A model generated the notes under the pieces. That model had not been told where the DNA came from. It saw only the letters and a program-made list of their open reading frames with translations, and did not search any database. Of a stretch of DNA of 64,000 bases, positions 3,956 through 50,643 are shown one piece after another. Where the stretch lies: contig JBGLND010000001.1 of assembly GCA_041305945.1 (NCBI GenBank), positions 3,216,218 through 3,280,217 on the forward strand, read 5' to 3'. The translations under genes and the position numbers were made by a program. The first letter of the stretch is position 1; the number at the start of each line of letters is the position of its first letter. The DNA is from Promethearchaeota archaeon (lineage in GTDB: Archaea > Asgardarchaeota > Lokiarchaeia > Sigyniarchaeales > Sigyniarchaeaceae).

Positions 3956-6900
3956 TCGCCGGGTTCACGGCACCCGCATCGAACAGCAACGGGCAATGAT
4001 TCACCGATGGTCCCGTGTACGCACCCGAAGAAGGCGTCCTGTTCATGTTAATGCCGTCAGATGCTTGGAAATAATGCTCGTGATCACCCTCGTCCAGCCA
4101 CGTTGTGTAAATATACAAGCAACCGTCCGTGTAAACATTGTCGCCATCGTCTTGCTTTGTCATGTTAAAGGGGGTACCATCAATCACCACTTGAACTGGA
4201 TTCGGGCTCGGTGCTTCGTTATCGGCATCGAAGTACCGAACGGAATACGTGAAATGGTTTGAATTCACTTGCGTGTATCCATCACCAGTAACATCGAAGT
4301 AGGGAACCCGGTTATGCCTGTACACGGCGATTGAAAAGCTAGCTGCACCGCTACTTGCTGATGCCTTATATACCACGATCACGTACGTGGCCCCCGAAAC
4401 TTCGGGACTGAAATCAATGATATGTTCATCACTCGAACCGCCCGAGATGCTTTGCCTGAATTCCAGCTGGGAACCACCAGCATCAATGCCCGATAAACGG
4501 CACGACCCACCTGCGAGCCGGAAAATCTCCACGTTGAGGTCATCGGCCGACGAGATATCAAGAATAATGTTATATAATTTGCCTTCCTCCATCGTCGAAA
4601 TCTCGTACACGGCAGCAAACTTGTTTGAAGAAAGCGATGAAGAGACTGGAATGTTCAATGCGAGTGTCGTGGCGCTTTGCGATTCCACGTATACTGTCCC
4701 GGTACTCCCTATCGTGTTCACCCGTGGATAGATCGGGGATGATCCCGAAGAAGGCTTGTATACCAACCATTCCACGTTCGACCCGGTATCGAGGGGATCA
4801 CCCAGGAGGACCGAATACTGGTTGGACGAGAACACCTTCATGTCAAAGGTCACGGTTGGTGACCACGCCGAAACGAGATGATACTGGCTCGATGACATGC
4901 CGTGCGTCTCGTAATAATATGGCATGTCCGGGTTTGACATGAGGGCTGCGAGGGGGATACCGTCGGTAAGCGTCTCGGGGATTTCCTCGATCTCCAAAGC
5001 AGCATTATTTCCGGGTTCCAGCAGGCAATCAACGAGGACCACGGCATACGTGTTGGAGAATAGAGGTTTGAATTGTAGCGTTAGATCCGATCCGATGCTT
5101 GAACCATTAACGTGATAGTCTTGCCAGCTCGATGTGGATGCACCGGGAGCCAAGTAGAAGACGTGCATGTGAAACTTCCCGTTCCATGGTACATCGAGGT
5201 GGAACCGGTAATTTTTCGATGATGATAACGATACCGTGTAAATCGCGTGCTTGTTCGTGTAGGCTGGGGCCAGGCTTCCCCCGAAAGGCAAACTACTTCC
5301 TTGAAAAAGACCGAAATAAGCCATCGAGCTATCAGACAAGGAATGAATGAATGGGTACCTGATCTGGGCGGTGCTTTCCCTGAAAACATTCCACCTCGTC
5401 AAATTCGAGATTTGGGTTGTATCGAGAATGGTTTTATCCGTGCTTGATTGTACCCCCATTTCAAGATTCGCAATTTGGGGAGTCGAAGTGGACCATTCGC
5501 CGAAGGTAAAATAATAGTTGCTTTCTACCGTGGGAACGGACATCTTCCGGTACCAAAAATACGGGGAACTGATGCCAGAATTTGTTACCGTGTCGAACGG
5601 TAGCCCGCTTGATAGCACGCGTGCTACCCGGAGAGTGGCAGTGGCTGTTCCCGAAACGCTGCGAACGAGGATACCATACAGCGTACTCGCAGCAGGTGTG
5701 AAATCGACGCATTCATTCACCGAGGTGCCCGAATGACTGGAGTGTGGATCGGTCCACGTGCACGTGTTTGGAGTCACCCTGAATACATCCAGCTCGTAAT
5801 TGCACCCGGTAGGGACGCCCAGCCATACCTTGATGTCATATCCCGATGCGGGTGACGTGAATTGATATAATTCCATCGCGTCGGTGCTCGAAAACGAGAG
5901 AGAAATTTCAGTATCCAAGGTGATGGGCGTTGCTTGCTCCCATTCGATGCCGAAAATGCCGGAACCAGACGGAGCGCTCACGACCGGGTTAAGCGTGCCG
6001 GTTGATGTTCCGGATGGATTGTACACGAGGAACTCGAACGAACTCGATGGTTGGGCCGACACTCCAACTTGAACTCCCTTCCGGTACAAGGCAAGATTGA
6101 AATCTTGGCTTGGTGGATTCGATTCACCAATGTACACGAGTTGGAGGCGATCGACATTGATATTTTCGTCAGAGCTATAATTCATTATTTTCCCGGTGGA
6201 GATACTGTCCGTAACACCAACATCATCGCTAAGAAACCTGTGAGGAACAAATCGCATTGTCGTGCTTGTTCTCGTGGTGCCGTATCTCGCGATGACGATG
6301 ACGTATTCCGCCCCGGGGTCATCGATGCAAAGTACCTCGTTCACGCCTGTTGATCCTGATGCACTCGAGTAATCCGGGGCATCCCCGCGCACGCATGCAG
6401 ATGATGCAACCTTGTAGGCGTGGAGATCGTACTGGCAGCCCACCGGAACGTCCAAGTAGATGTATCCCGGCACCGATGAAGGCATCGTGCAATGGACCAG
6501 CTCGATGAAATCATCTTGGTTGTAAAACGAAATGGTCGTTGAACCACTCAGGCTAAGCGAGGTCGATTGCTCCCATTCCACCCAGCCAGTCCCTGTCGCA
6601 CCCGTGGTATTCACGCGCGGACGTAGACTGTAACCAATAGGAATCATGCTTGGATGGTGAAAGACCATCCACTTGAGATTTGCCGTGCTTCCGATGAATG
6701 TCCCTCGCAATGTAGATGTGTGAGGCAACACATGCGTGTAAAACGCCATGTCGACGTCGATTTGACTGCTGTACACGGTGAACGCACTGTAGGCAGAGGC
6801 AACGATCGAACTGTTGCTGCGATAATAAAACTCGTCGACCGCGGGCGTGAAAGATTCGCCGTCATTTATTCCGTCGTTCAGAAGTTGTGGATTCGCGATA

Positions 6901-7064
6901 TCATTTGATAGGGACCCGACAGGAATTCCCAAATTCGCAATACTCGTGCCAGAACTCGTCCCTTGAGATGCCAAGAAATAACAAGCATAAAAGCAGCAAG
7001 ATACCGTGATGGCTAACGCCAATCCGATCCGTATCTTGTCTTGATGCCAGAAACGATGTTGCAC
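3876..7064 (-). CDS. Large secreted/surface protein with N-terminal signal/anchor and repeated PPC-like (pre-peptidase C-terminal-like) beta-sandwich modules
   Basis: The 1062-aa ORF has a hydrophobic N-terminus (LALAITVSCCFYACYFLA). It contains at least 3 internal ~100-aa repeats with G(Y)DIKVWLGVPTGCNYELDVF, YIYLDVPVGCQYDLHAY and LYNIILDISSADDLNVEIFRL motifs, and it is Ser/Thr/Gly-rich. Its 3-prime end overlaps the truncated LivF fragment by ~80 nt. Confidence 0.65.
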   Translation of the reverse strand: MQHRFWHQDKIRIGLALAITVSCCFYACYFLASQGTSSGTSIANLGIPVGSLSNDIANPQLLNDGINDGESFTPAVDEFYYRSNSSIVASAYSAFTVYSSQIDVDMAFYTHVLPHTSTLRGTFIGSTANLKWMVFHHPSMIPIGYSLRPRVNTTGATGTGWVEWEQSTSLSLSGSTTISFYNQDDFIELVHCTMPSSVPGYIYLDVPVGCQYDLHAYKVASSACVRGDAPDYSSASGSTGVNEVLCIDDPGAEYVIVIARYGTTRTSTTMRFVPHRFLSDDVGVTDSISTGKIMNYSSDENINVDRLQLVYIGESNPPSQDFNLALYRKGVQVGVSAQPSSSFEFLVYNPSGTSTGTLNPVVSAPSGSGIFGIEWEQATPITLDTEISLSFSSTDAMELYQFTSPASGYDIKVWLGVPTGCNYELDVFRVTPNTCTWTDPHSSHSGTSVNECVDFTPAASTLYGILVRSVSGTATATLRVARVLSSGLPFDTVTNSGISSPYFWYRKMSVPTVESNYYFTFGEWSTSTPQIANLEMGVQSSTDKTILDTTQISNLTRWNVFRESTAQIRYPFIHSLSDSSMAYFGLFQGSSLPFGGSLAPAYTNKHAIYTVSLSSSKNYRFHLDVPWNGKFHMHVFYLAPGASTSSWQDYHVNGSSIGSDLTLQFKPLFSNTYAVVLVDCLLEPGNNAALEIEEIPETLTDGIPLAALMSNPDMPYYYETHGMSSSQYHLVSAWSPTVTFDMKVFSSNQYSVLLGDPLDTGSNVEWLVYKPSSGSSPIYPRVNTIGSTGTVYVESQSATTLALNIPVSSSLSSNKFAAVYEISTMEEGKLYNIILDISSADDLNVEIFRLAGGSCRLSGIDAGGSQLEFRQSISGGSSDEHIIDFSPEVSGATYVIVVYKASASSGAASFSIAVYRHNRVPYFDVTGDGYTQVNSNHFTYSVRYFDADNEAPSPNPVQVVIDGTPFNMTKQDDGDNVYTDGCLYIYTTWLDEGDHEHYFQASDGINMNRTPSSGAYTGPSVNHCPLLFDAGAVNPASGTNTTVCRYDRDGKSRSWWLSRGKT

Positions 7065-16077: not shown

Positions 16078-16206
16078 TGGTAAAGGCTCGCCTCTATAAC
16101 GTGCTATGCAGCACGCGGTTGCAATCGGCGCCAGCCTTGCCATCCATTGAATCACGGTCTAATTCGTGCTTCGTCCATCAATACCCATCCCCAGATAGGT
16201 CATGAA

Positions 16207-19200
16207 ATGCGGTTCGAACAAGTTATATTCTTGAATCGTTTCCTTGAAAATATCAAACACGGTTTGAAAATCCTTCACGCGTTCAACGAGTCGTATCTCG
16301 TCAAGAAGAAGGATGAGAAGGCCATCGCGTCCATCGCGCGGCATCTCTCCACCTTCAAGGTATTCCCGCTCGAAGGCAGCGGCAAGAAGGAGCCGCTCGC
16401 CAGCTTGGACGACCCCCGTCTCTTTCCTCGGAAGCTCGCGTTGCCCTCGTTCCTCGCTTCGGGATTGAAAGGAACGAACGACATGCGGTACCTCGACCAG
16501 GACATCGATGCATTGATCGAACGGATCAACATAGAATTCCCCCACAAGACAAAACTCGAGAACATCAAGCTGGACGTCTTGCTCAAGATGCCCAAGCTAT
16601 GGACCCCGACGTTGAAAGAAAAGGATGACCATCTAGCATTCATCAACTACATCACGGTCATCGCGAGGGTGCGTTATTACCGGGAAAATGACCCCGTGCA
16701 ATGGAATCGATTGCTCGGTCAATTGCAGCTCAAGGTGGAGGGTTCCAACGATTTCAAGCCGTTGAATCTGCTGGTGCCTGTTTTTATTCGGAACAACTTC
16801 AAGGCGTGGTGGAACCGGCTCACGGGCTCGTTTGCACAGCAGGAAGATTTCACGTTTGGCCACCACGACGAGGCCTTTTACGGCAAGGTTACCTCGACCC
16901 AAATCGATGGGATGATGGAAGGCAACGAATCGGCGTGCCAAGTGTTCGATAACAATTATTTCATGACCTTGATGATCAGTTACTTGAAATCAAAGGAATC
17001 CACGTGGCAAGGCGAGGATGTTATCAAGCATTTTGCTAAAAACTTGTATAACGTGCTTCAAGAAAATGAGCGTGGTAAAAAACCCGACCGAACCGTTCAG
17101 CGCGATCATGTAAGCACGTTGCTTGACCTGCTCGTTTCGAGAACACGTGACCACAATCCTGCGCTGTTCCAGAAATACTACTTGAACGCAAGAACAAATT
17201 TCTTCCGATATATCTTGGATACCAATGAATACATCGACCAAGATAACGATTTTATCATTTCCATCCGGCATCTCATGAAAAATGCAGTTTTATCCGAGCC
17301 ATTTAATGACGAGTTGATCGACGCGTTCATATCCAGCAAGTTCAAGCAAGTGAATGATCTCTTCACGATCGAACGTGTGGCAGAGAAATTCAAGAACGTG
17401 CAAATTAACAAGAGCACGCTGGTTGAAATGAGCGCGTTCTTGGAAGAATTTAACGCGTACCTGACGAGCTTGGGACTCCAAGACGGTCTCGCGTTGTTGA
17501 AAGGGCACGCGCCTGGCGGCGGGAAACCAGCAGCGGGCCAGCTTTCGGGCTTCGAGGCCTTGAAGCGGGACATGCAAGTGGTCCTCAAGGTTTCCGACGA
17601 CGATGCAAGGAACTCCCCGTTCTCCTTCCAGCAAGTCTTTTCAAAGAAAGGACAAAAGGACCCGAGGCTGTCGGGGATCGAGGAAATTCACGAGTTCGTG
17701 CCAGGTTTCATTTACTGGGAGACCCTTCTTTCAAAATTCGGCCTCCAAGAGAAACAAGTTGAACCATTCAAGGCATTCTTCGAGATCACGCCGTTGGCCG
17801 TGGACGACCTCTTGCATTACCTCCGCCAAACGAGCGGGAACGCTGCGCGGAAAAACCAGGAACAGCTGTTCGTCCTGGCCAAGTTCTTGATCGAGCGTTT
17901 CTTCGAGGCTTGGTCATCATCATCGCTCGATGTTGCCATGTTTCCGGTCTTGAAATTGAGCGAGAGTGGCATGGTCCAGAAGCAATTCTTGTCGTGGAAT
18001 GGATTGATCGATAACAACGTGTTTTGCACGTGCAATCAAGAGGTCATCGAGGAGCTCGGTTCGAAATTGCAGAAGAAGGGAAAACCCGTGTATCTCCTGT
18101 TCGACAAGCAGCACACCGACGAGTTCGAGAAGTGGTACGGGCTGGTCAACACGATCCTGGAAACGATGAAAGGGGCGAAAATATTTTACTTGGAAACCAT
18201 CCAGAGCAAGATCGCGAACATCAACGATGCTATCACGCAATCATCGCGTGACCAACTCGTTACCTTGGAACGCAAGAATCCTTTCTTCAACGAAACGATT
18301 TTCATCCGGTACTTGTTGCCGATCCTGCAAAAATGCAGTTTCCCTCACACCTTCAAGGATATAAACATCCTTGACGTGGATGCTGCCTTCTTGAACAATT
18401 CATTCGTGTTTGATTACCTGTCCGAGACCGATGCGGACATGACCGTCGAAAAATTTGACGGGGTTGTCATTGACATCAAGAAAGAGAAAATCACCACGTT
18501 TTTCGAGCCGCAAGTCCACCCGCACAAGCAAGCCGTCATCATCTACGTCTCGAAAACATTCAAGAAAAGCGACCAGAAGAACGAGTATTACAAGTTCTTG
18601 TTCCGGCGGTTGTTTCCGAAGCAAAAAATGGAAAAAGGCGCGTATTCACAATTCCTCGAGTTTTTTAACTGGATGGACGATTTCGACAGGACGTTCTTCG
18701 AGGACACGGCTGATCCCGGTGCCATCGAGGCTGGGATACTGGACTACGTGTACCAGCGCAACACTTTACAGCTGAAGGCCAGCAAGTCATACGAGATCGG
18801 CAAGGAATTGCGAGCGTTCTGCGACGCGTGCCAAGAAACGTGGCTGGAACTGCGCCCATCGTGGAGCGCATCAACGGGTGCAAGAGAGCTGCCCGCGGGA
18901 ACCGTTGACGCGTGGACGCGTTGGTTCGACCTGATCGCGAGCCACCTTGCCCTCGACGAGGTGGGTAAAACGAAGAAAGTCGAGCTCCGGCTCGACGGGG
19001 ATGGCAAGCACGTGTCCGTCGAGATACGGTACTCGCTCGGTTCCAAGGATGCACCTTTCCCGAAAACTGCAACGGGGAAACAGGATTACATCAAGGCCAT
19101 GATCACCGCCATCACGCAACATTTTCTTGACCCCGGCAATGGCATGCGCGGCTCGATCGAAAGCGTGTTCCCCGGGGCCGGCCTACTCGACGTGAAAGGC

Positions 19201-19404
19201 ATTGCCAAGGTCTTCAAGGTACTCGGGAGCCGGCCGGTTCGTGAACCGCCGGTAACGGGTCCCGTGCCCGCGCGACCCTCGTCTCCCGACCTTGAAATGC
19301 CCGCGGTTGCCTCGTCACGCCCGCCAGGCCCCGCTTTCCCCTCGCCGATTACAGGTCAAAATAACAGAAATAATCCATCGAAGCAAAGGATACAAGTGGC
19401 TTGA
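16207..19404 (+). CDS. Large (1066 aa) uncharacterised cytoplasmic protein, predicted all-alpha, with a Pro-rich disordered C-terminal tail
   Basis: The ORF is long and uninterrupted, with no TM segment and no recognisable catalytic or nucleotide-binding motif. It is rich in K/E/F/N/Y and its codons are visibly more A/T-rich than neighbouring genes. The tail is PVREPPVTGPVPARPSSPDLEMPAVASSRPPGPAFPSP. The track ORF begins at 16147, and the first ATG in frame is at 16207. Confidence 0.65.
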   Translation: MRFEQVIFLNRFLENIKHGLKILHAFNESYLVKKKDEKAIASIARHLSTFKVFPLEGSGKKEPLASLDDPRLFPRKLALPSFLASGLKGTNDMRYLDQDIDALIERINIEFPHKTKLENIKLDVLLKMPKLWTPTLKEKDDHLAFINYITVIARVRYYRENDPVQWNRLLGQLQLKVEGSNDFKPLNLLVPVFIRNNFKAWWNRLTGSFAQQEDFTFGHHDEAFYGKVTSTQIDGMMEGNESACQVFDNNYFMTLMISYLKSKESTWQGEDVIKHFAKNLYNVLQENERGKKPDRTVQRDHVSTLLDLLVSRTRDHNPALFQKYYLNARTNFFRYILDTNEYIDQDNDFIISIRHLMKNAVLSEPFNDELIDAFISSKFKQVNDLFTIERVAEKFKNVQINKSTLVEMSAFLEEFNAYLTSLGLQDGLALLKGHAPGGGKPAAGQLSGFEALKRDMQVVLKVSDDDARNSPFSFQQVFSKKGQKDPRLSGIEEIHEFVPGFIYWETLLSKFGLQEKQVEPFKAFFEITPLAVDDLLHYLRQTSGNAARKNQEQLFVLAKFLIERFFEAWSSSSLDVAMFPVLKLSESGMVQKQFLSWNGLIDNNVFCTCNQEVIEELGSKLQKKGKPVYLLFDKQHTDEFEKWYGLVNTILETMKGAKIFYLETIQSKIANINDAITQSSRDQLVTLERKNPFFNETIFIRYLLPILQKCSFPHTFKDINILDVDAAFLNNSFVFDYLSETDADMTVEKFDGVVIDIKKEKITTFFEPQVHPHKQAVIIYVSKTFKKSDQKNEYYKFLFRRLFPKQKMEKGAYSQFLEFFNWMDDFDRTFFEDTADPGAIEAGILDYVYQRNTLQLKASKSYEIGKELRAFCDACQETWLELRPSWSASTGARELPAGTVDAWTRWFDLIASHLALDEVGKTKKVELRLDGDGKHVSVEIRYSLGSKDAPFPKTATGKQDYIKAMITAITQHFLDPGNGMRGSIESVFPGAGLLDVKGIAKVFKVLGSRPVREPPVTGPVPARPSSPDLEMPAVASSRPPGPAFPSPITGQNNRNNPSKQRIQVA

Positions 19405-38262: not shown

Positions 38263-38278
38263 ATGGAGCGTGAACACG

Positions 38279-38941
38279 ATGGGATTCAAGGGCATGCTGG
38301 TGATGGACAGGTCGAGTGCTCCCATCTATTCCAAGTTTCTCGACCCGAACTTCAACATGGACCCGGCAATGATGGCGGGCTTGATGAGCGCCATCCAGAT
38401 GTTCGCGTCCGAGATCTCGACCGGGTCCATAAAGGAATTTGCCATGCAGAACATGAAGATCCTGTACCGGCAGATAGAAGGCTTCACGTTCCTCGGCCTC
38501 GTGGACAACGATAACAAGATAAAACACATTGACCTCATCCTTGAATACATCATCTGGGTGTTCTTGGCCAAGTATAAAGGCCAGCTCGCCATCCCGAACG
38601 CGATCCACGACCTGGAAGCATTCCGGTCGTTCGACGAGGTGTTCCTCCAATTCCAATCCGCGAAGGAGAAAGAATTGCAACGGTGCGTGGAAAACACGTC
38701 GACCGGATTGCTGCAATGCATGCTCAACAAGCTGGCAAACTTGTTTCCCGTGACCGAGCTGATCGGCGTGAGCGATGTGCTGAAAATAATCGGTAAAAAG
38801 CTGGTGTGGGTTGACATCAACATACCCGGTTCTGAAGAAGCGCGTATCATGACCCTGTTGAAGCAAAAAACCGATATGGTCTATGGCCCTGGCATGTTCG
38901 ATAGCATCAAGCAAGAAATCATCAAGAACGCCAAGAAATGA
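38279..38941 (+). CDS. Longin/roadblock-fold (sigma-adaptin/SNARE-like) domain protein with C-terminal extension
   Basis: N-terminal GMLVMDRSSAPIYSKF...MKILYRQIEGFTFLGLVDNDN...DLILEYIIWVFLAKYKG...IHDLEAFRSFDEVF follows the longin/AP-sigma pattern (Gk...kivYr.y..lyF....d.nel..le.ih.yve.LD.yf..vcELD.if.f). Confidence 0.5.
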   Translation: MGFKGMLVMDRSSAPIYSKFLDPNFNMDPAMMAGLMSAIQMFASEISTGSIKEFAMQNMKILYRQIEGFTFLGLVDNDNKIKHIDLILEYIIWVFLAKYKGQLAIPNAIHDLEAFRSFDEVFLQFQSAKEKELQRCVENTSTGLLQCMLNKLANLFPVTELIGVSDVLKIIGKKLVWVDINIPGSEEARIMTLLKQKTDMVYGPGMFDSIKQEIIKNAKK

Positions 38942-40635
38942 ACGGCAGGCCTGCCCCTTTGGCGCCTGCAATCATGGGGACAGGTCCCGGTCATCCTTCA
39001 GGACATTCCCGGTCGCCATCGTTGTGTTCGTTGAACCTTCGTTGAACCTCATTGGCAGAATTGCACCTTGGAACAAGGAGAATGAGTTGGAAAAAAGGGA
39101 AAAACGAGAAGGATTGGCAAGGCGGTTGCCGCTAAGCAACCACCAAGCCATTGCCCGTGCGCCGATGCATCATCCCCGTCGTGCAAGACCCGCCGTGCCA
39201 GGTTTCTGGACCGCTCGTGGCGCGGTACTGCCGGTTTTTTGCCGGCAGCCGGTGCTCCCGTAGCACCGGGGGGGACTCCGAACGCGCTGGCATGGTATCG
39301 GTCCAATGCAGGCGTTTCTGTCCCGCCGCGGGGTTTTTCACCCGCGGTTTCTTGCATATCGGGGTGGGGTTCGTGCATTGCTTGCTTTTCCCGCCACGCC
39401 CAAGAAACCACCGAAGATGCTTGCCGAATGTAGCATCCTGGATGCCGTGTTTTTGCGGCTGGTCACCCTTTTGAGGGGGCTTCCGTTTGCCATGGTTTCG
39501 GCCGGTTCTCCTTTTGAGGGGATTGCCGTTTCCCGTTCGACAGCATGTCGCCCTTTTTACGGGGTTTCTTGCCATTTCCTGGTTGGTTGCCCTTTTGAGG
39601 GGGTTTCCGTTTGCCGATTTCCACGGCCGGTTTCCCTTTTCAGGGAGTTCCCGGTTGCCGCGTTGCACGGCTGGTCGCCCTTTTGAGGGGGTTCCCGGTC
39701 AAGCCTTGGCGACTCCTGCCAGGTCCAGCGAGGCATTCATCACCGGCTTGTTCAACGCGTTGGCACGCGTGTTCTTGGGTGTGAGAGGGACGACCTGCTT
39801 TCCCGGTCCACCGCGAAAGATTTCCTCGCCACCAAGCCCGTGAATCTTGGCGATGATGCCACCTTTTTGAGGGGCGGCCACCCAGAGCCCCTTTCAGGGA
39901 TGGATGGAATGGACACCGGACTCCGCCGCGTTTCGGCGCGGCTTCGTTTCACGTCCAAGCCGGTCGTTGCCAACCGGCATCTTTCCTATTGGGAAGGGAA
40001 TACACGTTTCACGTTCACCACCAGCGAGCAGAACCGACACGCACGAGCACCGAAATGCTCGCCGTGCGCCGCGATTTCTCGCGGCCAAGCCCGTCCCGGG
40101 GGGCGGGCAGGCAGGGTCGCCAGCCATGCACCCGTCTCGGCGGGTGCCGGTTTCAACCCCGGTCGCGTGCACGCGACCTCCGCTCGTATTGGTGAAGGAA
40201 ACGCCACGTTTCTCATGCCCGTCGCGGAAGTTCCACCAGCAGCCGTTTTCCGGATGGTCCGGCTGCCGGCGCACCTGTTCGGTGCCATGCCACCATCGGG
40301 ATGGTGGCCGGGAGGGACTGCGAACAGCAACCGTTGCTAACGGCGTGTTTCCGTCCCGATCGCTTTTTGGCGATTACTCCTTATCGAGCCAGAGAGCCCG
40401 TCGAAACCCCAGACGCTGAGGACTTGGGGCATCGATGCTTGCCACCAGGGCAAGTTCTTCCCCCGCGATGTCTCGCGAGGTGCGGTCGATGGCGTCCACG
40501 ATGCCCGGGAGCATCACGGCCACCACCAACGTGCCGGAGCACGGAACTCCTATCTCGTGCCCACGCGGAGTGAGCATTCTATATTTCAACCCGACAATAT
40601 TTAAACCGGCATATTAACCCCCTAACATGGCAAGG
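38942..40635. other. GC-rich apparently non-coding tract built from short GC-stem/T-rich-loop hairpins
   Basis: No frame has protein-like composition, and short ORFs overlap on all six frames. Perfect hairpins include ctgccgg-tttttt-gccggcag, ccggtgct-cccg-tagcaccgg and ccgcggg-gttttt-cacccgcgg. The unit CCCTTTTGAGGGG recurs. Confidence 0.5.
39465..39720. repeat. Degenerate tandem repeat, ~6 copies of a ~43-bp unit (consensus about CCTTTTGAGGGGGTTTCCGTTTGCC + ~18 nt)
   Basis: Unit starts are near 39465, 39509, 39549, 39589, 39635 and 39678. Each unit begins with a CCC-TTTTGA-GGG mini-hairpin. The units diverge throughout and there are no unique spacers. Confidence 0.55.
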
Positions 40636-42494: not shown

Positions 42495-43913
42495 ATGACC
42501 ACGAGACCTAATATCCTCTTCTTATTTCCCGATCAACACCGGGGAGACTGGATGCCGTACCCGCCCGACGTGCTGGCCAAGTTTGGCATGGGCGAGCTAC
42601 CGCTACGCATGCCCGTGATCGAGGCGTTGATGGCGCGTGGCGTGACGTTTCACAATTGCGTGACCCCGGCGCCCTTGTGCGCGCCCGCGCGGTCATCGCT
42701 TGCCTCGGGATTGCGATATGAAAAAACCGGCGTCAAGGGCAACAATTTCAACCATCCCCTCGAGCTCAAGACCTTCTATTCGGTCTTGAAGGAGAATGGC
42801 TATACGGTCGGCGGGTGCGGGAAGTTCGACCTGCGAAAGCCGGAGCATGATTTCGCCGGGACCGGTTGGGTCCCGAAGCTCGCGCAGCTTGGCCTCACCG
42901 AGGGGTACACGATCGATAACGGCGGCAAGCACGATGCCATTCGCTGTGGCACGACATACGTCGATCCCGTCGACGGGAAAAGAAAACACCACCTGGATCC
43001 CGAGAAGCACCCGCCCGTGTGCCCGTACATGAAATATTTGAACGATAACGGGCTCATGATGATGCATATAAAGGACTTCGCGAAGCGGGGCAAGGTCTTC
43101 GGGATGCAGCTTAATAGCAGCCCCACCCCGTTGCCTGAAGAAGCGTATTGCGATAACTGGGTGACGCGAAACGCGGTGGACGTCGTAAAGCGTTTGCCCG
43201 CGGGGAAGCCATGGTTCTTGCAAGTCAACTTCGTGTGCCCGCATGAACCGTTCGATATAACGAGACGCATGAAGGATGCATGGAAAAACGTGAAATTTCC
43301 CGGGCCCAACCGCGGTTCAATGCTCACGGCGGCTGCCGAGAAAAAAGTCCGGCAAAATTACGCGGCCATGATCGAGAACATCGACCGGAACGCGGGGCTC
43401 ATCATCGACGAAATTTCCAAGCGGGGGGAACTAGAGAACACGATCATCGTGTATTCCAGCGACCACGGCGAGATGCTCGGCGATTTCAAGAAGTATGGCA
43501 AGTCCCGTCCAGAGCGCGCCTCCATCCGGGTGCCGCTCGTCATTGCCGGGCCCGGGATATCGAAAGGCGTCATCAGCGACGCGCTCGTCGAGTTGCAGGA
43601 CCTTGCTGCCACGTTCGTTGGCCTCGCCGGCCTGTCCATGCCGGAAGCCAAGGACTCGATATCGCTCGTGCCCGTCCTCGAAGGAAAAACGGACCGGCAC
43701 CGGGATCACGTCGTCTCGGCGCTGGCCAACATGGGATCTGCACTGGGCAATAAGAAGGTCGGCTGGCAAGTGGTGCTTGATGGCAAGTACAAGCTGGTTT
43801 CAACCACTTCTGGCGCGGAGCTCTTGTTCGACCTTGAAGCTGACCCGTGGGAAAACGAAGATATATCTGCAAACCACCCCGATATTGTTGGTGCGGCGAA
43901 AGATACACGCTAA
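42495..43913 (+). CDS. Sulfatase (arylsulfatase/choline-sulfatase type) with canonical CxPxR motif
   Basis: It has ILFLFPDQHRGD, CAPARSSLASG (C-x-P-x-R formylglycine motif) and SDHGEMLGD. Confidence 0.85.
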   Translation: MTTRPNILFLFPDQHRGDWMPYPPDVLAKFGMGELPLRMPVIEALMARGVTFHNCVTPAPLCAPARSSLASGLRYEKTGVKGNNFNHPLELKTFYSVLKENGYTVGGCGKFDLRKPEHDFAGTGWVPKLAQLGLTEGYTIDNGGKHDAIRCGTTYVDPVDGKRKHHLDPEKHPPVCPYMKYLNDNGLMMMHIKDFAKRGKVFGMQLNSSPTPLPEEAYCDNWVTRNAVDVVKRLPAGKPWFLQVNFVCPHEPFDITRRMKDAWKNVKFPGPNRGSMLTAAAEKKVRQNYAAMIENIDRNAGLIIDEISKRGELENTIIVYSSDHGEMLGDFKKYGKSRPERASIRVPLVIAGPGISKGVISDALVELQDLAATFVGLAGLSMPEAKDSISLVPVLEGKTDRHRDHVVSALANMGSALGNKKVGWQVVLDGKYKLVSTTSGAELLFDLEADPWENEDISANHPDIVGAAKDTR

Positions 43914-44152
43914 TTATTCAATGATATATGCCCTTGAAGGAATCATCACGTTGAGCTCGGGAAGCCGTGCCTACACGACAATGCCGCACGACAACGACGA
44001 GATCATTAACAACGTGCTCGTTGGCTTCGATAATTTCTGCAAGAGGCTCAAGGACAAGTAATTGGTTTTTTAGCGGAATGCTGCTTGGCAGCAATTTTTC
44101 TTGTTTTTTTCCAATTTTGTCGAGCTTTCCCCACGCCGGGAAAGAAATAAAT

Positions 44153-46069
44153 ATGCGAGAAAGCAACATCCTTCCTAATGACGTGATCATGACGAGCACC
44201 ACCGTGATTTTCGATACAAATTTCTTCGTGGGAATAATCGACAACGCGAGGAGCAACGACGCGATCTTTGATTTCGTTCGCATGCTCCGTGCATCGTTCG
44301 ATGAGAATGACATCGAAGCCATCATCCCGTTCCGCGTGGTGCACGAAATCGAGCAATTCCACAAGCCTCTTTCATCCTTCATCGAGGGAAAATTTCGCGT
44401 GTACAAGCCGATCGATATCAACAAGGATCAATTTTACTTGAACGTAAAATGGATGAATTTGGAACGACATCCCGATAACCGGTGGTTCAACGCGAGCGAG
44501 ATCACGGACTTGGAAATCATCACCGTTGCCAAGCACGTTACCGAGGAGCAGAAAGGACATTCTACCGGCATTAATGGCGATGCAGCATGGGTGGTGACCA
44601 ACGACGAAGGCATCCAGAAAGCAGCCAAGCACTTGCTCAAGAACGCTGTCAAGATCATCGAACCAGCGGCATTCCTCGGTTACATGACAGGGGTGACAAA
44701 CGATACCAACATCCGGACCGAATTCGAGCACATGTCGAAGCTAATATTCAAGCATTTCACCCGGTATCGTGAACGGTTTGGCCGGCCCCCCGTGAGCCAA
44801 CTGGACCAGTTCTTTTCGGGGATGTTGACGTCGATCAAGATGGCCAGGGAAGATGCCAAGGGATTCTTTGACGAGGAAGCAATCATCGCCTTGGACAAGC
44901 ACTTGATGCTCGGCTGCGAAATGGAGAGCCCGGAGATGACCATGTACAAGCCAGCCATGGTGATCATGCGCGAGATCATGAACGAGGATGACGGCAAGAT
45001 TGCCAATACGTTGCAAGAACACGTGAATCGGTTATCACTGGCCTTGGTCGAATTGAACGCGCGGTTAAAGGAACTAACGAATTACACGCGATTCTACAAT
45101 TACATCAGCCCCTACCTGGCAAGAGCATACATCATCTCGTTCAAGACGGCGTTCATGAACCACGACCTTGACAGGGCATTCACCATGATCGGCATCGCAA
45201 AGACCCTCGTCCAGCCACTCATCAACCGCCCGAGCATCAGCAGGCTGTATTTCAGCATCTTCATCTCGGAATGTGCAGCCCGGCTCGTGTCGGGGTATGA
45301 CGGGGGCATGTTAAGCCAGGGCGCGCTACAATTCTTGAAGCAAACCCTTGAAGAGAATATCATGCCGGCGCTTGTACCAGAAGAGCACGTTCGGCTGCTC
45401 TTGCTGGTGGACGCGTGCGCGAGAAATGACATCGAAGCAAGCGGCCAAGATGCCCCCCCGTTACCTTTTAGTGATGATGTTTTTTCGAAACTATCCATCT
45501 TGGCGGAGGATTTCGCCGACGAGATCACGCGGTTCGGCAACCTGACGCTTGCGTTGCGAATCTACGCCATGCTGCACGACAAGGCGGATGCAACCCCGGA
45601 GAAGGACCAGAAAATCCGTATTGAAGGAAAATTTTTTCTCACGTGCATGCTCCTGCAGGGTGATTCTTGCACGGGCTCGATGAGCCGGTTTCCCGGCGAT
45701 TGGGAACGCACGATGGATGCACTCGATGCATGTCACGTACACGGATCGTGGACCAGCATCGAGCACGTGCACGACGACTTCCAGCACAAGATAAAGATAT
45801 TGAATTATGATCGGGCCAGGAACGCGTTCACTTGCTGGGTGTACCCCCTTCGCTCAAGATTTCTCATCGACATCCCCGCGCCGTTGATAGGGGATAACAA
45901 GATCAACTTGAAAGAAATAAAGGTAAGGGCGGGCAGCATCAAGGTAACCGGGTTCGAGGAGGGCGACCGCAAGGTGTACCGTGCACGGGGAAAGATCGCG
46001 ATAGACAAGGATTGCGAGGTCGATGTATACACGTACCAAGCACGGTTTTTCACGTTGAACGTGTTGTAG
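44153..46069 (+). CDS. PIN-domain nuclease (N-terminal ~180 aa) fused to a ~450-aa alpha-helical domain of unknown function
   Basis: The four PIN acidic positions are VIFDTNFFVG, VVHEIEQF, ASEITDLEII and the diagnostic VVTNDEGIQ. The remainder is helical with no known motif. The ATG at 44153 was verified and the stop is TAG. Confidence 0.65.
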   Translation: MRESNILPNDVIMTSTTVIFDTNFFVGIIDNARSNDAIFDFVRMLRASFDENDIEAIIPFRVVHEIEQFHKPLSSFIEGKFRVYKPIDINKDQFYLNVKWMNLERHPDNRWFNASEITDLEIITVAKHVTEEQKGHSTGINGDAAWVVTNDEGIQKAAKHLLKNAVKIIEPAAFLGYMTGVTNDTNIRTEFEHMSKLIFKHFTRYRERFGRPPVSQLDQFFSGMLTSIKMAREDAKGFFDEEAIIALDKHLMLGCEMESPEMTMYKPAMVIMREIMNEDDGKIANTLQEHVNRLSLALVELNARLKELTNYTRFYNYISPYLARAYIISFKTAFMNHDLDRAFTMIGIAKTLVQPLINRPSISRLYFSIFISECAARLVSGYDGGMLSQGALQFLKQTLEENIMPALVPEEHVRLLLLVDACARNDIEASGQDAPPLPFSDDVFSKLSILAEDFADEITRFGNLTLALRIYAMLHDKADATPEKDQKIRIEGKFFLTCMLLQGDSCTGSMSRFPGDWERTMDALDACHVHGSWTSIEHVHDDFQHKIKILNYDRARNAFTCWVYPLRSRFLIDIPAPLIGDNKINLKEIKVRAGSIKVTGFEEGDRKVYRARGKIAIDKDCEVDVYTYQARFFTLNVL

Positions 46070-46096
46070 GTAAAGTAACGGGATGGATACAACATC

Positions 46097-46885
46097 ATGG
46101 AACAGTACAAGAGTGCCATGGCAAGCATCATCGCCACGATCTTGCGGGAATTGAAGGAGTCGCCCAAAGGACCTAACGAGGTTCCTGTCGACACTTTGCG
46201 GGAGGTATACACGCCCGACGAAGGCGAAAACGATCCATCCTTGGAGGAATTGCTGGAATACGTGAGTACCGGGACATCGGACAGCATCACGATGGTGAAA
46301 TCGGGAGGAAAGCACGTCGTCAAGGTCATGGACAAGGTATCGTTGTACCTCGCGTTGTACTCCCTCGATTACAGCATGGCGACCGCGGAATTGTTGCACT
46401 GGTCAGACTTCGAACGGCTGATAGCCCACGCGATGCAAGAGAACGGGCTGGTAACGAGGAACAACACGCGGTTCAAGGACGTCAAAGGTTCTAGGCACGA
46501 AATCGATGTCATTGCGGTTGACAAGCTCTCCAAGGAACACATCATCTTCCTGATCGATGCCAAGCACTGGGACTTTCGCACCGGCGGAAGCGTTGCGAGG
46601 GTCCTCGAAGCCGCAAACGAGCAATTCAACCGCGCGGTCATGCTCGGGGAGAGTCTCGATGCGCTCTCGGCCTTGCTCTTCCAGATGAAACTGGAATGGA
46701 CCAGGTGCGTGCTCGTGCCCATGGTCGTGACCTTGCACGCCCCGCCGGTGCAAGATTTTTTCATCCCGATCGTGAGCATCATGGAATTCAACAACTTCAT
46801 CCAGGAGTTCGCTGAAAACATGGACTTCTACAAGAAAAAGTACGTCGATAACATCCCCGTGCAAAAACGCGTTGATTCCCCGTGA
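46097..46885 (+). CDS. PD-(D/E)xK restriction-endonuclease-fold protein (Mrr-cat/Hjc-like core) with N-terminal extension
   Basis: FERLIAHAMQENGLVTRN...GSRHEIDVIAVDK...HIIFLIDAKHWD matches the E-x-D ... (I/L)D-x-K nuclease core. It is 28 bp downstream of the PIN gene on the same strand. Confidence 0.6.
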   Translation: MEQYKSAMASIIATILRELKESPKGPNEVPVDTLREVYTPDEGENDPSLEELLEYVSTGTSDSITMVKSGGKHVVKVMDKVSLYLALYSLDYSMATAELLHWSDFERLIAHAMQENGLVTRNNTRFKDVKGSRHEIDVIAVDKLSKEHIIFLIDAKHWDFRTGGSVARVLEAANEQFNRAVMLGESLDALSALLFQMKLEWTRCVLVPMVVTLHAPPVQDFFIPIVSIMEFNNFIQEFAENMDFYKKKYVDNIPVQKRVDSP

Positions 46886-46903: not shown

Positions 46904-47227
46904 CTAAATGCTCCAATCAATGGGTGCCAAGCCCTTGGCCTCCAAGTTGATGCCGAACCTTGCCGCGTCATCGCCCTCGAGTGCATCGAGAACGCGATCT
47001 ATCGAAACCGTGAGCAATTGCTCGGGAGTCCCGTCCCCGAAGATTGCGGAGTACTTGAAATGCCCGATGCCCGGCATCTCGAACGAGCCCATGCCCACGG
47101 TGGAGATCAAGCCCAGCCCGCCTGCCCGTGCGACCGCGGCCGCGAGTTTCGTTGTATCGTACGGGCCCATGCCCGCCTGGATGATAGGGTACCGAGTTTT
47201 GAACATGTCGTTGAACAAGGTTCGCAT
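46904..47227 (-). pseudogene. Nitronate monooxygenase/enoyl-ACP-reductase-II family (NMO/FabK-like), N-terminal 107 aa only
   Basis: YPIIQAGMGPYDTTKLAAAVARAGGLGLIS is the family N-terminal signature. The ORF stops after 107 aa, and the TIM-barrel remainder is absent. Confidence 0.55.
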
Positions 47228-48514: not shown

Positions 48515-49936
48515 TCAATGATTGGCCAAGATGACCTTCTTGCCGAACAAGATGGTCTTCGCGGTCTCGTACGCGGCGCTGTAGTTGAACACCTTGGCAC
48601 CGGACGTGTTGGCCGCCTCCTTGAGCATGTTGCTCTCCGTGACGTACTTCAAGCCACCCAAGGCCAGCGAGCCGGTCCCGAAGATACCCGGGTAGACATC
48701 CTTGTCCTCGTGCTTTGCCTTCAGGCCCTCGATGCCGGCAGGCGGGACCGCGTTGATGTCGACGACGAGCTTGAGCCCCTTCAGTTTTTCCATCGACGTC
48801 TTACCGAGCACTTGCACGCCCGCGGTTGCCACGGCCCAGATGATGTCGGTACCTTGGGCGATCTCCTCGCGAGAGGCTTCCGTCGGCGCGAAGGCCGCCA
48901 CGATTGGGGTTGCATCCTGGCCAGCTTCGTCGTTGAGAAGCTTGACGAGGGCTCCAATGCTCTCCTGGCTTGCCTTGTCCCATGTCTCGACCATGGTCAC
49001 GTGCGCGTGTTCCTTCGCCGCGATGATCGCCGCGATCTGTCCCACGGGACCGGCACCGTACACGGCGACGTGCTTTCCCGCGAGGCCATCCCACCCGTGG
49101 TTGATGGCCATCTGCAAGGTTTTCGCAACCACTGCCGACGCTGTCGTGTGCGAGCCGCGCGGGTCGACGACCACGGGATGCTCGAAGGGGGGCACGAGGG
49201 CCTTGACCACTTTTTCGGCGATCTTGTCGCATTCCTTCACGTTAGAGCCACCCACGAAGAAGCAGGTGGGTGCCGTGGGTTTCCTGGAAAACATCGCATC
49301 TTGCACGAGCCTGGTGACCTTTTCCGCGGTGACGTTCGAGAATGGTATCACGGCGGTGAACCCGGCGTCGTAAGCCATGTTGATGTCGAACGGCGAGGCA
49401 AACGAGTCCGTGTCGAACATGTACAATATCTTCTCGGCGTCGGCTTTCTTTTCCTTGACTTTGACGGGTGCGATGTCGAGCACGGTGCTTTTCAAGAACT
49501 CGTCGATCTTGGCAGCATCCGGCAGGTTCTTGACGCTCTTCTTCATGGCAACCTTCAGCACGCCGACGCCAAGCTGGTCTGCGAGCCCCGCCATGCCATC
49601 GAAGTGGCGTTTGTCGCAGATCAATAACGCGGTCATCTTGATGGCATCGATGCCCTCGGCACGCTTCAAGATGCCGGACATCATCCACGCTTGGCGGATA
49701 TCGTACCGGACCTTGTCGACCTGGCTCTCGATCTCGGATTTCAAGTATTCTGCCGTCAGCAGCACTTGCTGCAAGTAGGTCCTCTTGGTCGTGTCCTTGC
49801 TCGCCTTTATGGAATCGGCAGACGAAACCAGCCCCGCGTGGAGGGTGATGGCAGGATCCAGCGAGGCGTTGATATATCCCAGGGCGTTCTCGTCGATGTC
49901 CACCCAGCCGTGATCGATGCCACGTTTCTTGAACAC
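48515..49936 (-). CDS. AlaDH/PNT-type NAD(P)-binding dehydrogenase (LOR/SDH-like), product unassigned
   Basis: The C-terminal half has VAVYGAGPVGQIAAIIAAKEHAHVTMVE (Rossmann, alanine DH/transhydrogenase type). The N-terminal substrate domain could not be assigned to a specific enzyme. The + ORF 48518..49627 is antisense and spurious. Confidence 0.5.
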   Translation of the reverse strand: MFKKRGIDHGWVDIDENALGYINASLDPAITLHAGLVSSADSIKASKDTTKRTYLQQVLLTAEYLKSEIESQVDKVRYDIRQAWMMSGILKRAEGIDAIKMTALLICDKRHFDGMAGLADQLGVGVLKVAMKKSVKNLPDAAKIDEFLKSTVLDIAPVKVKEKKADAEKILYMFDTDSFASPFDINMAYDAGFTAVIPFSNVTAEKVTRLVQDAMFSRKPTAPTCFFVGGSNVKECDKIAEKVVKALVPPFEHPVVVDPRGSHTTASAVVAKTLQMAINHGWDGLAGKHVAVYGAGPVGQIAAIIAAKEHAHVTMVETWDKASQESIGALVKLLNDEAGQDATPIVAAFAPTEASREEIAQGTDIIWAVATAGVQVLGKTSMEKLKGLKLVVDINAVPPAGIEGLKAKHEDKDVYPGIFGTGSLALGGLKYVTESNMLKEAANTSGAKVFNYSAAYETAKTILFGKKVILANH

Positions 49937-49962: not shown

Positions 49963-50643
49963 ATGCATCGAGGTTCCTGTTGCCGAGCTCTGAGCGGCAA
50001 TGAATTCACGATGCTACCCGAAACTATTGGTAACCTTTCCTCTCTCGAAGAATTATACCTTGTTTCGAATCGATCGGAGACGTTCTTTCTCCCGGACAGC
50101 ATCGTCCGGTTAACCGCCCTCAAGCGCCTTGACTTGGGACAGCTGGATGTATCCTCATTTCCCGAGGGGAAGAAGAATGCATTGCTGGCACTCCAGGCCA
50201 AGGGAATACTTGACATTGCTTCATTGCCGTTGAACGAGAAACGCGTGAACGTGAAAGTCATGATCAAACAATTGAATGAAAGGATCATCAAAGCACGGGA
50301 AGGCTTATCGCAGACGAGCTGGGACGAGGATAAGAAAAACGAGATCATGGCATTAATACAATCCGGCGAACCCAATATCCTGGACTCTCCACGAATCAGG
50401 GAGATAAAGTACCAGCTGGTACAAAGCGGGTTGGTTTTCAAGGAGATTAACGAGTGGCGAGTGCTAGACGAGACGAAACACGCGGACCTTGCATTGAAAA
50501 AAGGCATCGAGATCCATGAAAAGATGGTGAACGTGAAAGATATCTTGCACCCTGCCATCAAAGCATATTTTAAAGAAACTATCAAGGCAAAATCAGACGC
50601 GTTCAGGAAACGGATTCCATTCGACTACGAAGCCTTGGAATGA
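49963..50643 (+). CDS. Leucine-rich-repeat containing protein fragment with C-terminal helical domain
   Basis: It has LSGNEFTMLPETIGNLSSLEELYLVSNRSETFFLPDSIVRLTALKRLDLGQ, which is 2-3 LRR units. The ORF opens mid-repeat directly at the divergent gene boundary, so its N-terminus is probably truncated. Confidence 0.5.
   Translation: MHRGSCCRALSGNEFTMLPETIGNLSSLEELYLVSNRSETFFLPDSIVRLTALKRLDLGQLDVSSFPEGKKNALLALQAKGILDIASLPLNEKRVNVKVMIKQLNERIIKAREGLSQTSWDEDKKNEIMALIQSGEPNILDSPRIREIKYQLVQSGLVFKEINEWRVLDETKHADLALKKGIEIHEKMVNVKDILHPAIKAYFKETIKAKSDAFRKRIPFDYEALE

Follow-up and report, generated by a model that had tools for sequence, protein, structure and literature searches.

A vertically inherited PIN/Mrr-like two-nuclease operon in Sigynarchaeota-like Asgard archaea and its possible role in nucleic-acid surveillance

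Introduction

Several described groups of nucleases are relevant to the locus considered here. HARP proteins (PIN_5) are ~190–200 aa long, form dodecameric assemblies, and cleave the 5'-leader of pre-tRNA. In VapBC modules, a toxin of ~130–150 aa is preceded by a small gene for the antitoxin. Nob1 is the housekeeping endonuclease of the pre-rRNA D-site, and its PIN domain is followed by a zinc ribbon with CxxC pairs. The Mrr-type restriction endonucleases cleave modified (methylated) DNA.

The Lamassu systems form another point of comparison. In their LmuA proteins, an N-terminal effector is joined to a C-terminal domain for docking, and one of the known types of LmuA effector is Mrr (PMC12663957; bioRxiv 10.1101/2022.05.11.491447). 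The effector types listed for LmuA in two Lamassu surveys do not include PIN (PMC12663957; 10.1101/2022.05.11.491447). Lamassu and SbcCD are evolutionarily linked, a precedent for exchange between immunity and repair (PMC12663957). HEC-03, a candidate defence system, consists of an ABC ATPase and a VapC-like PIN protein (bioRxiv 10.1101/2024.01.29.577857).

Domain organisation of the two nucleases

The window (the whole 64,000-nucleotide stretch of DNA that was analysed) contains two co-directional nuclease genes on the forward strand, as described in the initial annotation (Table 1). The gap between them measures 27 bp, where 28 bp had been given. The in-frame starts of gene 1 are ATG 44189 (626 aa), ATG 44153 (638 aa), and 44078, the start of the 663-aa NCBI model P0001. 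The 638-aa ORF that had been reported exists, but the alignment of homologs favours ATG 44189, which is likely the start of the protein.

Table 1. Coordinates of the nuclease genes, their domains and predicted catalytic codons, and the adjoining gene remnants in the window.
Feature	Residues	Position	Strand	Remarks
Class-III aminotransferase 3'-end relic	last 56 aa	43891..44061	+	tblastn, 71% identity
Gene 1, PIN-TPR-beta protein	626 aa	44189..46069	+	from ATG 44189; ORF read from sequence
Gene 1, PIN nuclease domain	1-170	44189..44698	+	
Gene 1, PIN catalytic codons	D9, E53, D107, D139	44213, 44345, 44507, 44603	+	E140, G141 next
Gene 1, TPR-like solenoid	~171-500	44699..45688	+	all-helical
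Gene 1, beta-rich C-terminal domain	~515-626	45731..46069	+	AF2 model, pLDDT 82-94
Gene 2, winged-helix + PD-(D/E)xK (Mrr_cat-type) nuclease	262 aa	46097..46885	+	
Gene 2, N-terminal winged-helix domain	~1-95	46097..46381	+	
Gene 2, PD-(D/E)xK core + conserved C-terminal extension	~100-250	46394..46846	+	conservation 0.78-0.83
Gene 2, catalytic codons	E115, D137, D154, K156	46439, 46505, 46556, 46562	+	invariant alignment columns
Truncated nitronate-monooxygenase-like (NMO) fragment		46904..47227	-	Pfam NMO, profile 3-42 of 331; downstream bound of block, outside module

The N-terminal domain of the gene 1 protein has the Rossmann-like fold of the PIN superfamily and the active-site motifs VIFDTN, VVHEIEQ, EITDLE, and VVTNDEG that had been recognised earlier. 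The acidic residues Asp9, Glu53, Asp107, and Asp139 (626-aa numbering) are invariant in 17 sequences, including both close relatives and relatives with only 14–22% identity. The nearest structural neighbours of the domain are VapC, HARP, Rrp44, and Nob1, all of them RNases, and its top Foldseek match is HARP.

The remainder of the protein had been described as a ~450-aa helical domain. The AF2 model instead divides it into a TPR-like helical region of ~330 aa and a beta-rich domain of ~110 aa. The family-specific conserved motifs of the helical region include TRFYNY, EDFxDE..FG, and RIEGK. The motifs of the beta-rich domain, CW.YPL(K/R)SRF, G.IK, and RG.IE, are kept even in remote relatives, and Trp550, Ser556, Gly582, and Arg600 are near-invariant in the divergent alignment (A4). 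This domain also aligns across the gene 1 subfamilies by hhalign. It may be OB-like, the single basis for this assignment being the match of the overall architecture to TTC5.

Close homologs of the gene 1 protein are 35–62% identical (E-values down to 1e-142) and have been found in Asgard metagenome-assembled genomes only. An exhaustive profile search of 1.84 billion representatives places the PIN family in 21 clusters, 9 of them close, and a genome scan with alignment A1 returned only three species-representative loci. The protein stays below every curated Pfam cutoff, among them the gathering cutoffs of PIN_4 (18.4 against 21.9) and PIN_5 (15.9 against 27), passes no curated cutoff of NCBIfam, where nothing meaningful was matched, and has no match among the PADLOC models. 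TIGR03875 (“RNA ligase partner”) scores 14.2 against a cutoff of 95.3 and covers the last PIN motif only. Judged from its sequence, the architecture of this large PIN protein falls outside all named families, in agreement with the initial annotation.

Other identities for gene 1 have been considered and rejected. A Nob1-like or rRNA-processing PIN is contradicted by the lack of CxxC pairs or a zinc ribbon and by the conserved pairing with gene 2. HARP yields sub-threshold sequence matches only and differs in size and architecture. The eukaryote-type PIN domains of SMG6, EST1, and Nmd4 score below VapC.

The gene 2 protein matches restriction-endonuclease folds, and its PD-(D/E)xK fold with an N-terminal winged helix is the combination that characterises the Mrr type. 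Its core motifs HEIDVIAVD and LIDAKHW, pointed out previously, are present, and the match to Pfam Mrr_cat (PF04471) reaches 22.7 bits (E 1.1e-4), above the gathering cutoff of 21. Precomputed PF04471 matches exist for several homologs as well. Homologs of gene 2 are found with E-values down to 1e-96, which, together with the values for gene 1, puts both genes well outside the range of chance ORFs. Across 17 homologs, Glu115, His134, Glu135, Asp137, Asp154, and Lys156 are invariant, giving a catalytic site of the pattern E...D...DxK. The conserved C-terminal extension comprises ~60 aa. Profile searches of both families against PDB sequences gave no credible match.

Conservation of the pair and its inheritance

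The survey of homologs for a conserved PIN and PD-(D/E)xK pairing, suggested in the initial annotation, found the PIN gene immediately followed by the Mrr-like gene in 17/17 related loci, all from metagenome-assembled genomes of Asgard archaea (Sigynarchaeota/Promethearchaeota). The intergenic gap is 12–59 bp across six measured loci. The pair always lies at one chromosomal position amid housekeeping synteny, in the order RtcA, class-III aminotransferase, PIN, Mrr-like, and AMP-binding or UPF0147. The mean identity between loci is 58% for the Mrr-like protein vs 58% for RtcA, and 43% for the PIN protein vs 49% for NMNAT. All domains of both proteins are under purifying selection. Divergence that resembles that of neighbouring genes is unusual for defence genes.

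By sequence comparison, genes 1 and 2 make up a genuine two-nuclease operon with both predicted catalytic sites intact. The operon is specific to the Sigynarchaeota-like Asgard lineage and is inherited vertically, its synteny being fixed and its divergence running in step with that of the neighbours. Neither of the two outcomes that would have overturned the initial annotation was observed: gene 1 is no housekeeping PIN of the Nob1 kind lacking a conserved partner, and gene 2 does have the PD-(D/E)xK fold.

The flanks of the window locus depart from this arrangement. Residues 426–481 of the aminotransferase in a syntenic locus (L003) match window positions 43891–44058 by tblastn with 71% identity. 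The 47-aa ORF (43918..44061) that had been listed upstream of the pair does exist, but it lies inside this relic, matches the aminotransferase genes of L003, L009, and L013 at their ends, and has no counterpart as a separate gene in the relatives. Since this ORF is what remains of an aminotransferase gene, the flanks have been rearranged and the pair has not been inserted; the two genes stayed together through the rearrangement. The upstream flank now consists of sulfatases. Around the pair, both in the window and in the syntenic loci, the neighbours are metabolic or housekeeping genes and no defence genes were found; no PADLOC model matched gene 2 or the 47-aa ORF.

Remote relatives of the PIN protein

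The gene 1 family aligns over its full length with a remote group of proteins (hhalign probability 99.96, E 3e-39, 560 columns) that are only 14–22% identical to the window protein. At three of the remote loci (L014, L016, and L019), the PIN relative follows an ATPase of ~600 aa that matches the PADLOC LmuB model PDLC03859 near full length (E 1e-30 to 1e-34). At a further locus (L017), the upstream ATPase is cut off and matches LmuB with 2e-11. The LmuB-like operon of L016 lies ~4 kb from the DISARM genes DrmC (2e-47) and DrmB (5e-158). At L018, the PIN relative starts 4 bp after a Type II DNA methyltransferase (8e-68).

The LmuB-like loci have the order small ORF, ATPase, PIN, and the small ORFs show no convincing homology to one another. 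A 242-aa gene after the PIN relative of L016 is unrelated to the Mrr-like family. The remote PIN relatives matched no PADLOC model, and the LmuA and LmuC profiles found no match in gene 1, gene 2, or the remote PIN relatives. No LmuB-like gene is present among the window ORFs scanned.

Because the remote relatives follow LmuB-type ATPases or a Type II methyltransferase, their contexts point, indirectly, to a conflict-system origin of the PIN family and a defence-type ancestry. The earlier suggestion of a defence-type module retains this indirect support as regards ancestry, but none from the window, where the pair matches no PADLOC model and no defence island is found.

Possible functions

It is proposed that the pair encodes an undescribed, stably inherited two-nuclease complex for nucleic-acid surveillance, of an immune type. 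This reading, to which we assign a probability of roughly 0.45, is put forward because the operon is fixed at one position and the remote PIN relatives reside in defence islands. It is further supported by the strict pairing, by the invariance of both predicted catalytic sites (in the PIN protein even at 14–22% identity), by the confirmed folds, by the full-length homology to the remote group, by the winged-helix and Mrr_cat layout that gene 2 shares with Type IV restriction enzymes, and by the parallel to the effector and docking domain of LmuA. The gene 1 protein would act as an effector-adaptor, with the PIN nuclease at its N-terminus and the TPR-like solenoid and beta-rich domain serving in docking or regulation. 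Its remote full-length relatives are encoded beside what would be the DNA sensor, which is an SMC ATPase of the LmuB type or a DNA methyltransferase. The corresponding partner in the Sigynarchaeota-like lineage would be the gene 2 protein, which would supply both DNA recognition and DNA cleavage. The winged-helix nuclease might recognise aberrant or foreign, possibly modified, DNA, and both nucleases would then be activated inside a physical hetero-complex, with DNA as the substrate of the PD-(D/E)xK site and RNA or single-stranded nucleic acid as that of the PIN site. The role of the complex would then be immune rather than housekeeping. Several observations speak against this proposal. The pair resembles core genes in keeping a fixed position in all relatives and in diverging as its neighbours do; neither protein matches a PADLOC model or has homologs on plasmids or phages; no defence genes lie close to the pair, and no LmuB-like gene is adjacent in this clade; and the RNase neighbours of the PIN fold would also fit RNA processing.

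The main rival of the surveillance complex is a housekeeping complex exapted from conflict-system parts for genome maintenance or RNA metabolism, for example for the processing of DNA ends or branched DNA, or for RNA processing or repair by a HARP/VapC-like PIN. This alternative is considered somewhat unlikely. The fixed position, the congruent divergence across all relatives, the purifying selection on every domain, and the lack of defence-model matches and defence neighbours are what such a complex would show. The PIN domain is nearest to RNA-processing PINs (HARP as the top Foldseek match, weak PIN_5 and “RNA ligase partner” matches), RtcA is a constant near neighbour, and the link between Lamassu and SbcCD provides a precedent (PMC12663957). 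On the other hand, RtcA is not part of the operon because it lies on the opposite strand, with the aminotransferase between it and the pair. The very small clade (9 close clusters among the 1.84 billion representatives) also counts against it, since a core function confined to such a clade would have to be lineage-specific. Moreover, the architecture of gene 2 is of the Mrr type, every partner that could be identified for the remote relatives is associated with defence, and the window genome tolerates the break in synteny.

Independent functions of two merely co-located genes, such as a stand-alone Mrr-like Type IV enzyme beside an unrelated PIN protein, would be consistent with each protein having its own complete catalytic domain. 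This is improbable given that the short-gap adjacency holds in 17/17 loci even though RtcA is only 48–75% identical between the genomes bearing the pair, and that the pair was kept together when its flanks in the window were rearranged. A toxin-antitoxin or addiction module of the VapBC kind, in which the PIN protein is the toxin and the neighbouring product the antitoxin, is more improbable still. The 47-aa ORF, tried as the antitoxin, is the aminotransferase relic with no separate gene in the relatives; the PIN protein has 626 aa rather than ~130–150 aa; the partner is a nuclease with an intact active site and not a DNA-binding antitoxin; and the inheritance is stable and vertical. Finally, the recent insertion of a mobile defence or toxin cassette between unrelated genes, which the initial annotation had considered consistent with the unrelated sulfatases and truncated NMO fragment and which a slightly lower GC content would suit (0.49 at 44–45 kb vs 0.56 in the sulfatase genes), is largely refuted by the single syntenic site and vertical-type divergence in all relatives, by the aminotransferase 3' end of the ancestral upstream neighbour carried in the block, by the lack of a transposase, integrase, or repeats beside the pair and of tRNA genes across the whole window (the Rfam scan of which was empty), and by the lack of plasmid or phage matches to either protein in tblastn searches.

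Extending the surveillance proposal, the PIN-TPR-beta proteins could make up a class of archaeal effector-adaptors, so far unrecognised, whose members dock onto different DNA sensors: Mrr-like nucleases, methyltransferases, or, in a “Lamassu-PIN” variant, SMC ATPases of the LmuB type. One such module would have become fixed in the core genome of the Sigynarchaeota-like lineage, where it would form a hetero-nuclease of the PIN and Mrr types. This generalisation is speculative and, at present, rather unlikely.

If the proposals hold, the locus would represent both an undescribed protein family, in which PIN is combined with a TPR-like solenoid and a beta domain, and an undescribed partnership of two nucleases. 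The partners of this one family would be of three types, namely Mrr-like nucleases, methyltransferases, and SMC-type ATPases, and the locus would be a rare case in which a defence-derived module is passed on in the manner of core genes throughout an Asgard lineage. The effector-adaptor reading would imply an immune module made permanent, possibly housekeeping, among the archaea most closely related to eukaryotes. The docking and restraint of Lamassu-like effectors, the use of PIN domains as effectors in archaeal SMC-based immunity, and the domestication of immune parts would all become directly testable. A lineage-specific enzyme of repair or RNA processing would still be a new nuclease complex, of narrower interest.

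Comparison with known systems

The VapC and PIN_5 proteins (HARP, RNA-free RNase P) have 130–200 aa, whereas the gene 1 protein, with its TPR-like solenoid and beta-rich domain, reaches 626 aa and, unlike VapC, is not accompanied by a VapB partner. SMG6/EST1A, PRORP, and TTC5/STRAP (TPR and OB) resemble it in architecture only. Their domain order is reversed, the PIN domain of gene 1 being N-terminal, they share no sequence homology with it, and their PIN domains score below VapC.

As in HEC-03, the PIN effector of the remote relatives goes together with an ATPase of the ABC/SMC type. The window pair, however, has no ATPase, and PADLOC, including its HEC families, matches neither the window proteins nor the remote PIN relatives. 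The Lamassu systems are approached more closely by the remote relatives, which directly follow LmuB-like ATPases and, as in LmuA, carry an N-terminal effector and a C-terminal non-catalytic module. The order lmuA-lmuC-lmuB differs from that of the remote loci, and the window pair and its 17 close relatives have no adjacent LmuB or LmuC. The Mrr Type IV restriction enzymes (Mrr_cat) share with the gene 2 protein the layout of an N-terminal winged helix and a C-terminal D...(D/E)xK site, but gene 2 is set apart from them by its constant coupling to a PIN-TPR-beta gene, its fixed locus, its vertical inheritance, and its ~60-aa conserved C-terminal extension.

The PIN-TPR-beta protein and its nuclease partner

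Both genes of the pair lie on the + strand, and every motif quoted in the initial annotation is found in their products. The reading frame of gene 1, encoding the PIN-TPR-beta protein, ends at 46069; it had been started at ATG 44153 (638 aa), while the public NCBI model P0001 (663 aa) adds 25 codons at the 5' end. In the alignment, all but one of the nine homologs start ~eight residues ahead of the DTNFF motif, which points to ATG 44189 and a product of 626 aa, so the frame stands with a different start. A TATA-like A/T-rich stretch (Table) would be consistent with this start.

Searches of Pfam with the gene 1 product return only PIN_4 and PIN_5, both sub-threshold; the one NCBIfam hit, a weak one, links the last PIN motif to the "RNA ligase partner" (HARP-type) family, and no PADLOC model matches. 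The AlphaFold2 model (mean pLDDT 79) has three parts, and its best Foldseek hits are the RNA-free RNase P proteins (HARPs). Foldseek also aligns 452 columns of the model to TTC5/STRAP, a protein of TPR+OB layout; an OB-like C-terminal domain may follow from this, as a lead and not a result. Four acidic residues, D9, E53, D107 and D139 (the last followed by E140 and G141), do not vary across 17 sequences, some of which share only 14-22% identity with the window protein. A Nob1-like identity, the housekeeping placement that the initial annotation named as one that would refute its reading, is ruled out because the protein contains no CxxC motif.

Gene 2 begins 27 bp after gene 1. Its product scores 22.7 against Pfam Mrr_cat (gathering score 21) and falls just under the gathering score of NERD. 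The structure model (pLDDT 88) shows an N-terminal winged helix and, as had been read from the sequence, a restriction-endonuclease fold in the C-terminal half. All 17 homologs keep E115, H134, E135, D137, D154, K156 and Q176, and conservation is higher in the nuclease core and a ~60-aa C-terminal extension than in the winged helix.

Distribution and inheritance of the pair

The PIN-TPR-beta family is small and lineage-restricted. When 1.84 billion representative proteins were searched exhaustively with a profile, only 21 matches reached E<1e-3, nine of them E<1e-30, and close homologs of both proteins were found only in Asgard metagenome-assembled genomes (Sigynarchaeota/Promethearchaeota labels) and one genome labelled Bathyarchaeota. 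The 90%-identity cluster of P0001 also holds P0042, a 41-aa Limnospira/Arthrospira hypothetical protein, probably a clustering artefact.

In all 17 loci with enough DNA, the PIN gene immediately precedes the Mrr-like gene; in the six loci where the gap was measured, it spans 12-59 bp. All of the relatives' loci share the same order: SAM_HAT, NMNAT, RtcA (opposite strand) and a class-III aminotransferase upstream, the pair in the centre, and an AMP-binding enzyme and/or UPF0147 followed by an amidohydrolase (opposite strand) downstream. Across six loci, the mean pairwise identities are 58% for the Mrr-like protein, 58% for RtcA, 52% for SAM_HAT, 49% for NMNAT and 43% for the PIN protein; the pair thus diverges in step with its syntenic neighbours. 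L007 and L009, the closest pair of genomes, are also the most alike in each gene compared. Judged from these comparisons, the pair is vertically inherited at a fixed locus.

The window carries a rearranged form of this locus. None of the syntenic neighbours occurs in its 64 kb except a relic of the aminotransferase, which slightly overlaps the end of a sulfatase gene. The 47-aa ORF reported upstream of the pair is present, not as a separate gene but as the last part of this relic. On the downstream side, the truncated NMO fragment noted earlier is borne out, covering only profile positions 3-42 of 331, so both ends of the block adjoin gene fragments. The block therefore still carries part of the ancestral neighbouring gene between flanks that have changed, the opposite of the cassette inserted from outside that had been proposed.

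Other features of the window

The other genes surveyed are ordinary chromosomal ones (sulfatases, GFO/IDH oxidoreductases, glycoside hydrolases, CorA, an Mpt_N-domain dehydrogenase, RFC subunits, pyrophosphatase), with no defence genes among them. Neither protein of the pair matched any plasmid or phage record. The longin-like, leucine-rich-repeat and HEAT-repeat proteins are of the eukaryote-like domain kind typical of Asgard genomes. The Mpt_N protein has ~180 aa without an assigned domain before Mpt_N and a Rossmann-like region after it. Two very large ORFs gave nothing in Pfam at E<=1e-4. A stretch without a convincing ORF matched no Rfam family and gave no hit in a tRNA scan; it holds a degenerate tandem array whose units have the core GGTnnCCCTTTTGAGGGGGTTnCCG, including a small hairpin.

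Table. Features of the window and of the loci of remote PIN relatives
Feature	Position	Strand	Remarks
HEAT-repeat protein	2135-3475	-	HEAT_2, E 4e-61
Large ORF	3876-7064	-	1062 aa
Large ORF	16147-19404	+	1085 aa
Longin-like protein	38270-38941	+	Fuz_longin_1, E 5.6e-5, below cutoff
Stretch without convincing ORF	38950-40600		~1.6 kb; GC ~0.59; strong AT skew (-0.25)
Tandem array	39449-39716		~44-nt units, 5-6 copies, 64-80% identical
Aminotransferase relic	43891-44058		last 56 codons; 71% identity to L003 ortholog
TATA-like stretch	~44139-44151		A/T-rich
Gene 1, PIN-TPR-beta	44189-46069	+	626 aa (favoured start)
PIN domain	gene 1 aa 1-170		AlphaFold2 model
All-helical region	gene 1 aa ~173-498		AlphaFold2 model
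Beta-rich domain	gene 1 aa ~518-615		AlphaFold2 model; ~ten strands
Gene 2, winged-helix Mrr-like	46097-46885	+	262 aa
Truncated nitronate-monooxygenase-like ORF	46904-47227	-	107 aa; ~first 40 of 331 NMO profile positions (Pfam)
Mpt_N protein	48515-49936	-	473 aa; methylene-tetrahydromethanopterin dehydrogenase N-terminal domain, E 2e-25, residues 182-259
Leucine-rich-repeat protein	49963-50643	+	below cutoff
[66-77-aa ORF][LmuB-like ATPase][PIN-TPR-beta] operon	L016 3581-7384 and 11476-13384; L014 276-3927; L019 3937-7596
Methyltransferase-P0035 module	L018 5151-7965

Remote relatives of the PIN protein

The exhaustive search also recovered remote relatives of gene 1 (530-654 aa, 14-22% identical to the window protein). 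Profile-profile comparison shows full-length homology over the PIN, helical and beta domains (probability 99.96, E 3e-39, 560 columns). Their genomic contexts differ from that of the window. In three loci (L014, L016 and L019), the PIN gene directly follows, or overlaps by 4 nt, a ~600-aa SMC/Rad50-like ATPase, itself preceded by a 66-77-aa ORF. All three ATPases match PADLOC model PDLC03859 (LmuB) across almost the entire model (E 1e-30 to 1e-34), and one has a Rad50 zinc hook. In L017, a cut-off gene upstream of the PIN relative gives a weaker LmuB match (2e-11). The L016 operon lies ~4 kb from DISARM DrmC (2e-47) and DrmB (5e-158). In L018, 4 bp separate the PIN relative P0035 (654 aa) from a preceding Type II N6/N4 DNA methyltransferase (8e-68), so that P0035 occupies the restriction endonuclease position of a restriction-modification module. 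None of the remote PIN relatives matches a PADLOC model, LmuA models included.

Proposed function

We propose that the family is a modular effector-adaptor in which a docking module, TPR-like and beta, is joined to a PIN nuclease and which would team with different DNA-directed partners, the partner in the window's clade being the winged-helix Mrr-type nuclease. The two products would form a hetero-complex: DNA would be recognised and cut by the winged-helix and PD-(D/E)xK subunit, the PIN subunit would bring in another nuclease activity, and docking and restraint would fall to the TPR and beta region. The analysis establishes the genes and their folds, the conservation of both active sites, the strict pairing, the vertical inheritance and the defence settings of the remote relatives; the complex, its substrates and its trigger are inferred, as is the immune role of the pair. 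We tentatively put the probability of a surveillance or immune module at about 0.45. The family does give a clear way to test for a connection between SMC-based immunity and a nuclease pair fixed in Asgard archaea.

The main rival, exaptation for a lineage-specific repair or RNA-processing task, is less probable; the pair behaves like core genes and the structural neighbours of the PIN domain are RNase-type, both of which favour it. The remaining, still smaller share of the probability is divided among independent functions, a toxin-antitoxin module and a mobile cassette.

Comparison with known systems

All domains of the pair fall in known superfamilies: PIN, TPR-like, winged helix and PD-(D/E)xK (Mrr_cat). 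Full-length gene 1 matches no curated family or defence model tested, in agreement with its initial description as an unnamed PIN architecture, and neither the obligate pairing nor the relatives' LmuB-PIN operons have a match among them. HEC-03, a separate candidate system of an ABC-ATPase and a PIN protein, has been reported (bioRxiv 10.1101/2024.01.29.577857). In Lamassu, LmuA joins an N-terminal effector to a C-terminal domain docking on the LmuB coiled coil and LmuC; its effector types in two published surveys are Cap4, Mrr, PDDEXK, Sir2, protease, hydrolase, lipase and monooxygenase, whereas PIN is not among them (PMC12663957; bioRxiv 10.1101/2022.05.11.491447). The ATPase-PIN operons of the remote relatives look like a Lamassu-like variant, so far undescribed, in which a PIN protein is the effector.
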